Numbered from the stretch's first letter, positions 766 to 8,823 are shown. The stretch is 32,000 bases of DNA from Microcystis aeruginosa NIES-2549 (GCF_000981785.2 NZ_CP011304.1:2760001-2792000); one strand, 5' to 3'. Translations and numbers: made by a program. Notes: generated from the sequence alone by a model not told the origin.

Positions 766-2709
766 TTATAAAGGGAAGATTTGAGCGAAATTTTGAGAAA
801 TAGTTTTAGCTTTCAATTCACTGACGAAATTTTTACGAGGAGCTGCCGTCGCTCCGAATACAGTAACTATTTGGTAATCTCCTAAATCAGCAATCCACAC
901 AGGAGAAGGTTTAGCTCCACCACTGACTTTACCACAGAGATTACCATCATATTCTCTTTGACCATTTTTACTGGTAATTTTCAAAGTATCACTGTGAAGA
1001 ATCGCTAAAGCATGGGGTTTACCTCTTTGTTCATTTCCTGCACAGACAAAAATTTGACAGTTACTATCGGCTGCATCAATCCATTGATTTTGTGAAACTT
1101 GATCTACTGTTCTGAGATTATTAGTATTGATATTGGTTTCACTAATGTTATCCAAAATACCATAAAAATCTCGCAATCTTTGCTGAAATTGTTGTTTAAA
1201 ACCCTGCAGATCATTGGGAATTGCCCAAAAATCTTCTTCACTGTCAATATACAATGTCGAACCACGAAACCAGGGGGCGTGTTCACGACTTTTGCGAGAA
1301 TAACTAGGTCGTCTTGCACCTTGACCAATACCACCCATATCAGCTAAAAACCAAGTCAAATGTTTAGCTAATTTTTTGACAGCTTCTTCTTTATCTTTTG
1401 GGGTTTCAGAAGATAAAGATAAAACTAAAGTTCCCTGTTGTTCACCACAGGGATCATTTTTACCCTGAGCATTGGTTCGAGGTTCTTTTTGGCTAACTTT
1501 ACCATCAAGAATATTCACTTGTAGATAACCGTATTTTTTAGGATTAATACCGCCAAATAATTCAGTTTCAATGTTTTGAACTTCGTTAATAGGTAAAACT
1601 CCAGATGCCAAAACACGAAACCAGTATCGCAGCATCGATTTAAAGGCTGTCGGACGAACTTCTGCGACGGGTGCGCTCCGCATTTGCCATTCATTGCGTC
1701 GCTCATTCCATTGCCATTGGGTGAATCGTTGATAACCATGAATTAATTGACCTTCTAGCTCGAAATCCAAGCGATAAAACCCCGAATCATGGCTATTTTT
1801 ATTATTATCAGGATGACTCGTATCATCAATTTGCTTTAATTGACCGTAACCACTATTTACTTGTGAACCTATGCCAAGCTGTAAACCTTTTTTAAGCCAT
1901 TGTTTTACCTGTTCCAGTATCTTTTCATCACCACAGTTACTAGCTAGACGTAAACCAATTAAAAAAGTTGGTTCTTTGAGAGACAAAAAAGGATTAGGGT
2001 TAGGAGAATATTGCGTAGAGTCATCTTTCCATGACCAAATATTATTAGCCATGTCCACTTCTAATCCACCATTTTTAGTCGGTAAAGGATAGGCATCAAA
2101 AAAGATAACTTTACCCGTTTTATTTTTTTTCTCTTTGGCGTTTATATCACCAAAATAGAGAGTGGTTTTTTCCACAGCTTCTTTCCATTCCAGATTATTT
2201 TCCGCCATGATTTCTCGGATGGCTTGGTTTCTGGCAACACCGCGCAAGGTACTAGATGGAATATAGGGCATTCCGAGGGCATCAAAAGCAGGTAAAAGAA
2301 TACTTTCCGGTCCACGATGACCACTGACACGAATACGCCAAGTGGATTTGACTTGAAAAGTGATTCCGTCTTTCGCTAACAGTTGGGTACGTTGATTGAG
2401 TTGGTCAAGACGCTGAGTATAGTTAGCATTTTCTTGGGCTGTTTGCAGAATTTGGACTTTGGTAGCGTCTTTGTAATCATGGTCAGCAGCACGCATCCAA
2501 CGGAGATATTCGACAAAACTGGCTGATTGGTCAGGTTGAGGTTCCTTTTCGGCGTTTAACCAGGGTGAGGGTTGAGGAGGATTATTATTGCCGCCGCCAC
2601 CACTGGGAGGCTTTTTGGGGGGTTGGTGGTTATTTTGCTGCTGTATAGCCGGATTTTTTAGGATGGGTTTTTGGGGGCGATTAGGGCGTGGTAAGGGGCT
2701 ATGGGACAT
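766..2709 (-). CDS. cmr6: type III-B RAMP fusion: Cmr6-like domain followed by Cmr1-like domain, with a low-complexity N-terminal tail
   Basis: Residues ~110-305 carry Cmr6 hallmarks (WRIRVSGHRG, LLPAFDALGMPYIPSSTLRGVAR, G-rich loop LGIGSQVNSGYGQL). Residues ~320-647 look Cmr1-like (VRPTAFKSMLRYWFRVLASG...ELFGG; MGGIGQGARRPSY). It is the last gene of the cas10-cmr3-cmr4-cmr5 string. Confidence 0.7.
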   Translation of the reverse strand: MSHSPLPRPNRPQKPILKNPAIQQQNNHQPPKKPPSGGGGNNNPPQPSPWLNAEKEPQPDQSASFVEYLRWMRAADHDYKDATKVQILQTAQENANYTQRLDQLNQRTQLLAKDGITFQVKSTWRIRVSGHRGPESILLPAFDALGMPYIPSSTLRGVARNQAIREIMAENNLEWKEAVEKTTLYFGDINAKEKKNKTGKVIFFDAYPLPTKNGGLEVDMANNIWSWKDDSTQYSPNPNPFLSLKEPTFLIGLRLASNCGDEKILEQVKQWLKKGLQLGIGSQVNSGYGQLKQIDDTSHPDNNKNSHDSGFYRLDFELEGQLIHGYQRFTQWQWNERRNEWQMRSAPVAEVRPTAFKSMLRYWFRVLASGVLPINEVQNIETELFGGINPKKYGYLQVNILDGKVSQKEPRTNAQGKNDPCGEQQGTLVLSLSSETPKDKEEAVKKLAKHLTWFLADMGGIGQGARRPSYSRKSREHAPWFRGSTLYIDSEEDFWAIPNDLQGFKQQFQQRLRDFYGILDNISETNINTNNLRTVDQVSQNQWIDAADSNCQIFVCAGNEQRGKPHALAILHSDTLKITSKNGQREYDGNLCGKVSGGAKPSPVWIADLGDYQIVTVFGATAAPRKNFVSELKAKTISQNFAQIFPL

Positions 2710-2772
2710 AATGATTATAATTTCCTTTCTGGTTCAATGAATGATAAAAACTGTGGTGACAATTTACCTGAG

Positions 2773-5836: not shown

Positions 5837-8823
5837 AAAAGGGAACCTCCGATCTTAATCTCTCTTTTTCGAGTCATAAAAGCTGCTAATTTCATCCAGC
5901 TATCCACGGCTTCCTTAAGATTGTTGGCATCATTTTCCGTGGTTAACCAAAGATGTTTGAGAAAGTTGCTTAGATCTTCTGGAAATTCTCTGTTGTCTGT
6001 TGTTAGATTTTCCTGACGGCTAGAGAAGGCCTTGACCCAAACCTCGATCGCTTCTATCATCGGTGCGGGATGCTGTTGCCAAAGGCCGGCCACTGCCTCG
6101 AATAAACTGGCATCGGAATTACTGGCGAGAAGTTTTTGCCAGAGGGGGAAAACATCAAACTTAGCCGTAGATTCGAGGCCGTTACCGTTGCCGTAGAGAA
6201 CGCGGACCTGTACAGCGTCTTTTTTGACTTTTTTGCCGTCAAAGCCTTTATAGGTGTGTTCTTTGGCTTTTTTCTCGGCTTCCCAGAGATTTTCTAGGGC
6301 GATAGCAAGGGGTACGGAATGGTGAGCGATGACCATACCGAAACTGATAGTCGCCCGCTTTCCCATGGTAAATAGGGGACGTTTGGCGAGATTTTCGGCA
6401 GGTTTTTCGCCTTTCCATTGCCAATAGTCACCGGCGTTATTAAATTCCCCATGGGGGTCTTTTTCTCCCTTAAAACATTGCCGGATATCCCATAACCATT
6501 TGTCCCATTCCCAGAGATTAGTATAGGCGAGAACATCATCACCGCCACCATAGATTAAGCGTCCTGCATAACGCTGTTCGGTGAGGTAGGGAACGAGTTG
6601 ATTAGAGAAGTCTAAAAGGGCGCGACTGAGGGCATGATGAGTAGATGGTCCGATGCGTTTATCGAGGGTGACAAAATCGCCAAAAGCTTTTTGAACTTCT
6701 TTTTCTAGGGTATCGGTTTCGGTCGGGGGATGATCGGCGTATTGATGAAGTGACTTGGGGATATAGTCTCGATAGGGTTTCATTTTTTGGCCTTTTAACC
6801 ATTCCCCCATTCCGTCACCATCTCCTGCGGCGATAACATACCAATCAGCCGGGTTATTGTGGGGATAGTTTTGGTCAATTAATTGGCTTAATTGATGGCG
6901 ATAATTAGCCATTTCTTCATCGGGTATCTCCAGTTCTTCTACTAACCATCCCGCATTAAGAAATCGAGGGTGATAACGTTTATATTCCGGTTCGATGTGA
7001 TTGTCAATGTAAGGGATTCCCCAGGGTTGGGTAAGTGCCGTGGGAATCTTTTTACCGTCTTCTCTTAACCTACGCGAGATGGTGCGACAAACTCGATGGA
7101 AATAGTCTAGATCACCACCTGTTTTGAGATAACCGGCGACTCCCACAGTTAAATCGGGATAAGCGGCATCTAGACGCTTTTGGTCGCTATTTTTTAAGAG
7201 TTTTGGCAGGATTAGGTGTAATCCGCGTTTAACGGTTTCGGTGGCGTTGAGTTGTTCGATACCATTAAATAATCCGGCATTTCGTTGCCAATATTCTTTG
7301 CTTGCTTTTTCGCTAATCCAATCATTGTTACCATCGGGATGGACGACAGGCCCCAGTCCAGAAATGGTGGAACGGGGACCGAAAGCGGTGGGAATCTGCC
7401 AATCGCGGGCATTTTTGACGGCAGCAAGGGCAGAAAGGTTTTGCTCGAAAGCACTACTCCACCAAGAACCAACATTTGAACTAAAAGGAGGTCTTTTCCA
7501 CTTCTGATGAGCTAATTCTCCGGCTTTTTGCAAAAATTCCCGCTCTTTTTCTAAAAATAGAGCTTTTTTATCGTAGAGATTATAAAGTTCGTTTTGTTTA
7601 TCTCGCCAGCTTTGCGCTTTTTCTGGGTCTTCGGCTTGATTTTCGGCGATATTTTCGTTTTCTTGGTAAATTTCGCCACTGGTGAGGGTTTGGTCTTCTC
7701 TACCGATGGGAACCCCCACATAATAGGTTTGCCATTGGGCATTTAACCAACTGTCCCAGGTACGACTATTTTCTTTTAATTGAAGTTTCTCGAAAACTTG
7801 CCGACTAATTTCTTTCCATTCTTTTAATAATCTAGATTTAGCGGTTTGCATGGCCGCCGCGACTTTATCTTTGGGCAAGATGAGAATAATAACGTTGGGA
7901 AATCCGGCGGTTAGTAATTGTTGATCCCCCGGTGGGTCGATCCAGGAGCTAAAATCGGAGTATTTTTCTAATAACCATTGATCGATTAAGGGTTGTGCGT
8001 AGAGAGAGGGATAGATCAAACTATCGGGGCCGTATTGTTGGGCGAGTTGCCAGCAGACTTTAGCAGATAGATAGTGTAATATCCAAGAACCTGCCCAAAA
8101 ATCGCCCATTTTGCGGCTGGCTTTGATTAGTTCTTGCACAGGGGAAAAGCTGAAACTAACGAGGTAAGGGTGGGATAATTGTTTTCCCGTCGGCCATTTA
8201 TTGACCACATCCTCGGGGGTGAGATCATATCCCGCTAGGGACCCAGCGATGGCCGCCGTTACACTGGCATGACTCCAGATCGATCCGTCTGGTATTCTGG
8301 TTTCGGCGGGCATTAAAAGCAGATTTTCGTCATCGAGTAATTTCGTCGCCGCTTGGGGAAGACAGCGCCATAACCACCAAAATAGTTCTTTAGCTTCGTT
8401 TTCTGAGATTCCTGTGCGTAGTCTGGCGGGAATCTGGTTAAATAGTCGTGTTTCCTGTTTTTTTAAGTAATCGGTGCGGTTAGAAGCGATTTTCTTATGG
8501 GTTGTGTTAGCTAATTTGAGAGCTAAAGGTTCTCCAGAGAGGAGATGACGCAATTCTAGTCCTGTTTGTTGATCGTAGTTAACGAATTGGGTTAAACTAG
8601 AGATCGCCGCTCGATCGCTGGCTGAGGTGATATAGTCTGCCAGTTTGATTCGTTTAAGAATTTTTTTAGTCGATTCTTCGGAGTTATGTTTTCCCCACAA
8701 CTTCATTACTTCTAAATCTCTCCAAAAGCTGTCACCGCTGCGTCCTGAGTTGCTATGTAGAGCTTTCAAGACGGGAGCTTGTAGTAATCCCCAGATTTTC
8801 GCTTGCCAGTATCCTAGAGCCAC
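5809..8823 (-). CDS. cas10: Cas10 / Cmr2 large subunit of a type III-B complex
   Basis: 1004 aa. The GGDD cyclase motif [14 protein letters not shown] has its GGDD codons at 6535-6546. A first Palm-like acidic motif [14 protein letters not shown] is present. The N-terminus [18 protein letters not shown] is the Cmr2 HD-domain start. The start codon is GTG, with a GAGG 6 nt upstream. Confidence 0.9.

Follow-up and report, generated by a model that had tools for sequence, protein, structure and literature searches.

The window, a 32-kb stretch of the Microcystis aeruginosa NIES-2549 genome (NZ_CP011304.1:2760001-2792000), carries a cmr operon at 766-8823 on the minus strand (coordinates count from the first base of the window). 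The operon encodes a type III-B (Cmr) effector module of a CRISPR system. Its Cas10 lacks the HD dyad and keeps the cyclase motifs, and its Cmr4 lacks the slicer aspartate. Pfam, NCBIfam and PADLOC matches were obtained for all subunits, with Cmr6 and Cmr1 fused in one protein.

cas10/cmr2 (5809-8823) has a GTG start and encodes 1004 amino acids (Pfam Cmr2_N, E = 1.7e-37, and Palm2, 1.3e-16; TIGR02577, 4.4e-50; PADLOC Cas10b, 5.9e-296). Its 3' end overlaps by 28 nt the start of cmr3 (4709-5836; 375 amino acids), which matched Pfam Cas_Cmr3 over its full length (4.3e-65). The usual cas10 stop codon is absent at 5809-5836 in the window and in three related strains (L058, L004 and L069), where the Cas10 C-terminus is ~8-9 residues longer and runs into the start of cmr3. 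The Cas7 backbone subunit is encoded by cmr4 (3495-4274; 259 amino acids; TIGR02580, 5.5e-35; P. furiosus Cmr4 structures, 1.2e-19) and is 97% identical to an M. aeruginosa protein. cmr5 (2773-3162) encodes 129 amino acids (PADLOC Cmr5, 1.3e-61). Its true start is M15 of the listed 143-residue open reading frame (ORF), as other strains carry a stop codon upstream of M15. The cmr6-cmr1 fusion gene (766-2709) encodes 647 amino acids, with TIGR01898 Cmr6 over residues 144-291 and TIGR01894 Cmr1 over 340-414; the corresponding PADLOC matches cover 81-296 and 349-467. The first-pass annotation had described long, intact reading frames, and all five cmr ORFs are indeed intact.

Assignment to subtype III-Bv

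The five genes are colinear with sll7085-sll7090, the CRISPR3 system on plasmid pSYSA of Synechocystis sp. PCC 6803, with 54, 48, 63, 62 and 48% identity (62.8% for window Cmr4 against pSYSA Cmr4). CRISPR3 is the prototype of subtype III-Bv, whose defining traits are that Cmr1 is fused to Cmr6 and that Cas6 is lacking (PMC6546367). The CRISPR3 repeat is cut by host RNase E to leave 13/14-nt handles, and CRISPR3 carries out plasmid interference (PMC6546367, PMC12464536, PMC6546366, PMC9676260). The window protein has the fusion, the combined Cmr6 and Cmr1 models covering residues 81-296 and 340-467. No cas6 family match was found in any window ORF of at least 100 amino acids. In the complete Microcystis locus L003 (NIES-4325), too, the genes identified, cas2 through csx1, all belong to families other than cas6.

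The 3' half of the window repeats, AAATTAATTGA(A/C)TGGAAAC, matches the CRISPR3 repeat and is conserved in 6/6 repeats. Repeats R1 and R4 form a hairpin at nt 2-18 followed by single-stranded nt 19-36 (-7.6 and -7.3 kcal/mol), as published for CRISPR3 (PMC12464536). They keep the RNase-E-type architecture, a 5' hairpin and then an AU-rich single-stranded tail ending in GGAAAC. Because of the orthology and synteny of five genes, the Cmr6-Cmr1 fusion, the lack of cas6 and the repeat hairpin architecture, the operon is assigned by sequence as an ortholog of CRISPR3, subtype III-Bv.

The Cas10 HD dyad is replaced by Gln-Ala

The Cas10 HD dyad had been read as Q-A in the first-pass annotation, and alignment bore this out. 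The N-terminus of window Cas10 reads KIWGLLQAP, with Q15-A16 (CAA GCT, 8776-8781 on the minus strand) in the HD columns. Among 120 Cas10 homologs these columns hold His in 120 and Asp in 116. A 20-sequence profile of the N-terminal domain aligned the Q-A columns to FFHDP of the solved Cmr2 9l7c_B (E = 9e-7). With the same profile, P. furiosus Cmr2 was aligned over the distal PD...W(S/T)H motif, which window Cas10 keeps, as it does the distal HD-domain residues D63, D70, D179 and H185. No alternative H-D dipeptide occurs in residues 1-215. Window Cas10 is without the N-terminal His-Asp dyad of an HD-nuclease-competent Cas10.

The HD codons are CAC GAT in six other Microcystis orthologs (L002, L003, L005, L006, L007 and L031) and in 9/10 metagenome contigs. 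Q-A is also encoded by L058 (GCA_008579445.1), which at 97.7% identity over 9 kb is the closest strain; it was reached through its 97%-identical Cmr4, an exact look-up of window Cas10 having given no record. Since this independent assembly uses a different Gln codon, CAG, the QA allele is real and no sequencing error. Two further strains carry other replacements, R-D (CGA GAT) in L004 (Microcystis sp. M015S2) and R-N (CGA AAT) in L069 (M. aeruginosa L211-07). The window, L058, L004 and L069 share 10 Cas10 synapomorphies, and the four strains therefore form one Cas10 clade in which the catalytic His is gone from every member. Of 853 codons invariant in the HD-bearing strains, codons 15 and 16 alone show two different derived residues, and the dyad has thus been hit repeatedly. 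Either this site alone was freed of constraint after the first hit, or inactivation was favoured.

A relaxation of constraint confined to the HD domain was considered and rejected. Between the window and L058, the ratio of nonsynonymous to synonymous rates (dN/dS, omega) is 0.17 in residues 1-215 as against 0.07 in the remainder of Cas10, a difference that is not significant (Fisher p = 0.66). Constraint persists on the HD fold as a whole, and the dyad alone is free.

A different replacement was seen outside Microcystis. In L033 (Symploca sp. SIO1C2; cas10 from 10001) the HD dyad is changed to NE, GGDD is intact and Cmr4 is Asp-less, with cas1/cas2 and a CARF-HEPN csx1 (20507-21955) in cis. 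By its sequence this locus would be a natural HD-dead III-Bv, in effect a cyclase-only system with its own receptor.

The slicer aspartate of Cmr4 is missing throughout the family

The catalytic-loop region of window Cmr4, HTGGTTQEGNLVGIARE (4188-4238, minus strand), has a one-residue deletion at the expected slicer Asp. In phmmer alignments P. furiosus Cmr4 D26 falls opposite a gap in window Cmr4. A hidden Markov model (HMM) built from Asp- or Glu-bearing Cmr4 only likewise placed a deletion at the Asp match state. The first Asp of the protein is D65, none occurring in residues 1-64, and the slicer-competent loop G-x-[IV]-D-x-P-[IV]-x-R-[DE], in which P. furiosus D26 lies, is not present. The slicer position is thus non-acidic, as first described, by deletion of the Asp column.

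To place this deletion, 132 diverse full-length Cmr4 representatives were aligned, one per 50%-identity cluster. The slicer column holds D in 119 and E in 2; other states are confined to the window clade and a few relatives. In the 120 closest Cmr4 homologs the loop TTQEGNL(L/V)GIARESHT is essentially invariant. With the Asp/Glu-only HMM, the deletion at the Asp state was also found in Synechocystis CRISPR3 and in two further divergent Cmr4 classes (GEGDLGNILEIARE and SSQAGNMMGIARE). Sequence comparison therefore indicates that the lack of this Asp in Cmr4 is ancestral to III-Bv and invariant throughout the family, not damage to the window locus, so the earlier reading of it as a local loss has to be given up. 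The Cmr4 state cannot be counted among three degenerative hits, since it is invariant in a family active in plasmid interference in vivo (PMC6546367, PMC9676260). The claim that both nucleases had been lost stands in part: the HD dyad is destroyed and the canonical Cmr4 Asp is absent, but the Cmr4 state is family-wide and, of the claimed losses, that of HD alone is specific to this Microcystis lineage.

Every type III system in which this Asp has been mutated loses target cleavage (PMC8682760), and the remaining conserved residues of Cmr4 are required for assembly rather than for catalysis (PMC9368842). The III-Bv family is accordingly predicted to be slicer-less. No mention of an Asp-less III-Bv Cmr4 was found in the literature, though the paper defining III-Bv (Behler et al. 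2018) may mention the loop.

Cmr4 might still be a nuclease if catalysis in III-Bv had shifted elsewhere, with E20 in the invariant QEGN as one candidate and a residue within the Cmr6-Cmr1 fusion as another. The window would then have lost the DNase only, and target cleavage would still time the cyclase. The near invariance of TTQEGNL(L/V)GIARESHT across hundreds of sequences suggests a function for the loop, and III-Bv interferes efficiently in vivo (PMC6546367, PMC9676260). Such a relocation sits badly with the other two Asp-less classes, which do not conserve E20 (GDLGN and SQAGN); what the Asp-less classes have in common is Gly-Asn, which offers no general base. The mutational results from other type III systems (PMC8682760) and the assembly role of the other conserved residues (PMC9368842) also speak against it. 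E20 as a universal replacement for the Asp was ruled out by its absence from the other Asp-less classes, and relocated catalysis as such is improbable.

The two divergent classes are themselves partners of the same Cas10. The KIWGLLHDP Cas10/Cmr3 family also pairs with Cmr4 of class B (L014, L016, L017, L019, L020, L022, L032, L034, L035, L037 and L042) and class C (L028, L036 and L055), at ~29% and 36-40% identity and both without the slicer Asp. The pairing of one Cas10/Cmr3 family with divergent Asp-less Cmr4 classes suggests backbone-module swapping within an Asp-less superfamily.

Cyclase motifs are intact and the CARF genes of the locus are deleted

Window Cas10 keeps the Palm2 motif GGDD (D762, D763; 6535-6546) and the Palm1 acidic motif GDGD (D668, D670; 6814-6825), both on the minus strand. 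In alignments both fall on the Palm motifs of P. furiosus Cmr2 and 9l7c, and the four Asp residues lie in columns at least 95% conserved in the Cas10 family. The motifs had been thought intact and are so, and with both GGDD and the Palm1 DxD in place window Cas10 is predicted to be cyclase-competent.

The complete III-Bv locus L003 has the order array, cas2, cas1, csx18, CARF-WYL, cas10, cmr3, cmr4, uma2, cmr5, cmr6-1, CARF-HEPN Csx1. Its CARF-WYL protein has 417 amino acids (PADLOC 4e-52) and its CARF-HEPN Csx1 has 500 (PADLOC 2.2e-137). Because csx1 follows the module in many other genera too, III-Bv normally uses cyclic-oligoadenylate (cOA) signalling as well as HD. cas1, cas2, csx18, CARF-WYL and CARF-HEPN csx1 are all missing in the window, L058, L004 and L069. 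Judged from these gene orders, the absence of the CARF partners in the window clade is a secondary deletion.

Pfam scans found no CARF, SAVED, Csx1, Csm6, cas6, cas1 or cas2 in the other ORFs of at least 100 amino acids in the 32 kb, in agreement with the earlier statement that no CARF/SAVED effector is visible there. The effector of a complete cOA signalling system is not encoded with the module within the window, and sister loci carry CARF-HEPN and CARF-WYL. In Microcystis, strains have been described with several III-B loci that include Csx1/CARF genes (PMC11855584).

A relic array with old spacers

Divergent from the operon lie a CRISPR leader (9124-9286, plus strand), which is conserved beside the arrays of all Microcystis orthologous loci, and behind it a relic array of 6 repeats and 5 spacers (9287-9686, plus strand). 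The hairpin is lost in 4/6 repeats. Spacers 3 and 4 are duplicates, and a dispersed palindromic element makes up spacer 5. This leaves four distinct spacers, three of which (S2, S3 and S5) are old, mutated and common to other strains at 0-6 substitutions, mostly 3-6.

Spacers 1-3 gave a 19-nt chance match or nothing in a phage collection, and the 29-nt core of spacer 3 had no match in IMG/VR. A search of all fetched loci with up to 6 mismatches returned array copies and the palindromic element at 18451-18480 only. At the position of spacer 5 (9621-9650) stands a 30-nt perfect palindrome, TTGTAGGGTTAATTCATGAATTAACCCTAC, which recurs 8.8 kb away at 18451-18480 with 93% identity and has copies in the arrays of further Microcystis strains. 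The palindrome may be a self-target, or else a small element that was inserted.

The cmr genes remain under purifying selection

The operon had been proposed to be under continued selection and not simply pseudogenised, and rates of substitution agree. Against seven Microcystis orthologs, the five window genes have dN/dS of 0.18-0.42, no higher than among those orthologs. Window-specific changes give omega of ~0.3 for the four longer genes, and in cmr5 such changes are too few. Comparisons within the HD-dead clade measure selection after the loss of the His. Between the window and L058, omega is 0.10 for cas10 (7.5 nonsynonymous and 19.5 synonymous changes; p(neutral) = 7e-8), 0.11 for cmr3, 0.32 for cmr4, 0.38 for cmr5 and 0.42 for cmr6-1, and for all five genes together it is 0.31 (p(neutral) = 4e-13). 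For cas10, omega is 0.22 between L004 and L069 and 0.33-0.34 between the window and either of these at a synonymous divergence (pS) of ~0.19. No stop codon or frameshift was found in the 20 genes of the four HD-dead strains, and so none in the sister strains L058, L004 and L069, where frameshifts would have meant plain decay. Clearly, purifying selection on Cas10 continued after loss of the catalytic His.

These results bear on the possibility that the locus is in early decay. The adaptation module, the accessory effectors, most of the array and the DNase are gone, and the operon could be heading to pseudogenisation, its low dN/dS being a product of history or recombination. Such decay would fit the deletions of cas1, cas2, csx18, WYL and csx1, the degenerate repeats and the duplicated spacer, as well as two lesions inside the operon. 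One is a MITE-like insertion of 425 bp between cmr3 and cmr4 (4284-4708), with two 32-nt direct repeats (4474-4505 and 4520-4551). It is common to L004 and L058, missing at the cmr3/cmr4 junction of L003, L006 and L007, and found as partial copies at other positions in Microcystis loci. The other is a uma2 pseudogene remnant (3238-3485, minus strand; tblastn 65% over residues 1-69 of L003 Uma2). It has a 258-bp internal deletion relative to other strains, which the window has in common with L058, and a synteny break at 3236-3238; only short ORFs remain. Decay would also fit an excess of substitutions at conserved Cas10 columns and a divergence that varies in mosaic fashion from gene to gene (pS 0.02-0.12 within a single pair of strains). 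It fits poorly with a single Cas10 clade of four HD-dead strains that has diverged to pS ~0.19 since the His was lost, with genes free of stops and frameshifts, and with omega of 0.10-0.42 and a firm rejection of neutrality between the window and L058. Early decay is thus quite unlikely.

The sister strain L004 raises another possibility. Its cas10 (6791-9829) has GSGDNI in place of GGGDDV, a change made by three G-to-A transitions within six codons, and all five of its cmr ORFs are intact. Because L004 lost GGDD yet kept every ORF, the cyclase is dispensable for whatever is selected. The module may have been exapted as a catalytically inert RNA-guided binder, its outputs removed in turn (csx1, CARF-WYL, the HD dyad and, in one strain, GGDD). 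Selection would then keep a particle guided by CRISPR RNA (crRNA), for example for transcript masking or regulation through a few fixed old spacers. The intact ORFs of L004 with both R-D and SGDN, at a Cas10 omega of 0.22 against L069, agree with such a binder, as does the dyad as the only place in Cas10 with repeated independent hits. The retention of the old spacers S2, S3 and S5 across strains also agrees. A motive for dropping outputs is available, as a slicer-dead Cmr4 is toxic via either HD or Palm activity in S. islandicus (PMC9368842). Three observations oppose it. GGDD and GDGD are strictly conserved in 3/4 HD-dead strains, the window included. The loss of GGDD in L004 is recent, not being found in L069, and the low omega could therefore be older than this loss. 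In the available sequence, none of the spacers has a host target other than the palindromic element at 18451-18480. On balance an inert binder is rather unlikely.

Other features of the window

Relative to the sisters L058 and L004, the window has an insertion at 9690-14165, just beyond the array. It holds a PEP-CTERM protein gene, an IS200/IS605 pair (tnpA 11006-11374, tnpB 11488-12747), genes for a small secreted protein and an LprI-like protein, and a degenerate solitary CRISPR repeat at 13449-13486. Other defence-type genes were found at 18989-20089 and 24535-28752: an HsdR-N-like nuclease-domain protein, a C5 cytosine methyltransferase with a Bpu10I-like endonuclease and an Eco57I-like N6 methyltransferase. 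An ORF at 21662-22246 encodes a response-regulator receiver domain followed by an Arg/Pro-rich tail in place of a DNA-binding domain and looks like a frameshifted gene. Heptanucleotide tandem arrays occur at 17191-17335 (AGGGTGT x9.6 beside TGCCTAT x9.7) and 29581-29667 (TAACTGA x12.4). A promoter and terminator scan of 600-9800 gave counts at shuffle background, and Rfam and tRNA scans of the window returned no matches.

A proposed role for the module

We propose that the operon is a reduced III-Bv Cmr module that serves as an RNA-guided sensor with cyclase-only output and signals in trans, and we put the probability of this proposal at about 50%. The Cmr complex would assemble on RNase-E-processed crRNA and bind complementary transcripts. 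It would be able neither to slice the bound RNA nor to cut DNA, and its sole remaining catalytic output would be cOA synthesis by the Palm-domain nucleotide cyclase. The signal might be sensed by CARF-type effectors at other type III loci of the same genome. It would end through target dissociation or host RNases, not through Cmr4 slicing. A cOA synthesis that is never switched off, as the first-pass annotation had it, would be no more than a prediction.

Several observations weigh against this proposal. The loss of RNA cleavage is deduced from one missing residue, the 32 kb hold no cOA receptor, and L004 has intact cmr ORFs without GGDD. The operon itself is marked by the MITE-like element that splits cmr3 from cmr4 and by the uma2 pseudogene. 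The array is a relic with most of its hairpins lost, its spacers are for the most part old and mutated, and none had a phage match in the collection or in IMG/VR. Window Cas10 also deviates at 11 of the 341 columns that are at least 95% conserved, as compared with a median of 4 for homologs and 1 for the closest HD-bearing ortholog.

The III-Bv module was known. The HD-dead, accessory-stripped variant is new, and the more interesting point is the Asp-less Cmr4 at the level of the family. Target-RNA cleavage by Cas7 is regarded as the universal type III off-switch, and its experimental removal leads to autoimmunity (PMC9368842). Stepwise removal of outputs is therefore plausible in an autoimmunity-prone family, with this toxicity as the driver. 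A large cyanobacterial family without the slicer Asp, which includes the genetically tractable Synechocystis CRISPR3, makes Cas10 switch-off without slicing directly testable. The Microcystis clade adds natural separation-of-function Cas10 alleles, HD-dead and HD-dead plus GGDD-dead, all under selection. They can show which outputs matter in a bloom-former under heavy phage pressure.

A wider view, which we hold only tentatively, is that III-Bv is a naturally slicer-less type III family that outsources crRNA maturation and target-RNA turnover to host RNases. One Microcystis clade would be shedding Csx1, the HD dyad and, in one strain, GGDD singly while its ribonucleoprotein is still selected, in transition from immune effector to signal generator or inert binder.

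Comparison with known systems

The closest comparison is with the full Microcystis III-Bv loci such as L003. Their Cas10, Cmr3, Cmr4 and Cmr5 are 87-94% identical to those of the window and their Cmr6-Cmr1 ~80%, and they have the same leader and repeat family. They differ in possessing cas2-cas1-csx18, CARF-WYL, an intact uma2, CARF-HEPN csx1, kilobase-long arrays and an intact HD dyad.

Synechocystis CRISPR3 (sll7085-sll7090, pSYSA) resembles the window in gene order, in protein identity (48-63%), in the Cmr6-Cmr1 fusion and in the lack of cas6. Its repeat GTCTCCACTCGTAGGAGAAATTAATTGATTGGAAAC and the window repeat CTCTCTACTCAGTAGAGAAATTAATTGAATGGAAAC belong to one family, and its Cmr4 loop TTQEGNLLGIARESHT is likewise Asp-less. 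Unlike the window, CRISPR3 keeps its HD dyad (LLHDP), cas1-cas2-csx18, a long array and the accessory genes slr7080 (Csx3-AAA) and slr7088. The window has instead a QA dyad and a relic array of five spacers, and its adaptation and accessory genes are missing.

A functional parallel is VmeCmr, a III-B system without HD nuclease activity in which the cyclase alone is the defence output, target RNA cleavage is very slow and the cyclase is long active (PMC8682760). VmeCmr is missing the whole HD domain, retains D26 in Cmr4 and has the gene for its cA3 receptor, NucC, in cis, whereas the window retains the HD fold with a mutated dyad, lacks the Asp and has no adjacent receptor. M. aeruginosa FACHB-524 'Cluster 3', likened to the window by description only, has III-B Cas10, Cmr3, Cmr4, Cmr5 and Cmr6 without accessory genes, in a genome with other Csx1/CARF III-B loci (PMC11855584).

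The engineered dCmr4-alpha of Saccharolobus islandicus shares with III-Bv a backbone without the catalytic Asp, and it binds RNA and activates Cas10 (PMC9368842). The engineered complex causes autoimmunity via HD or Palm activity, whereas III-Bv is natural and stable. As a natural, stable family in the slicer-less state, III-Bv must control its activation in another way.

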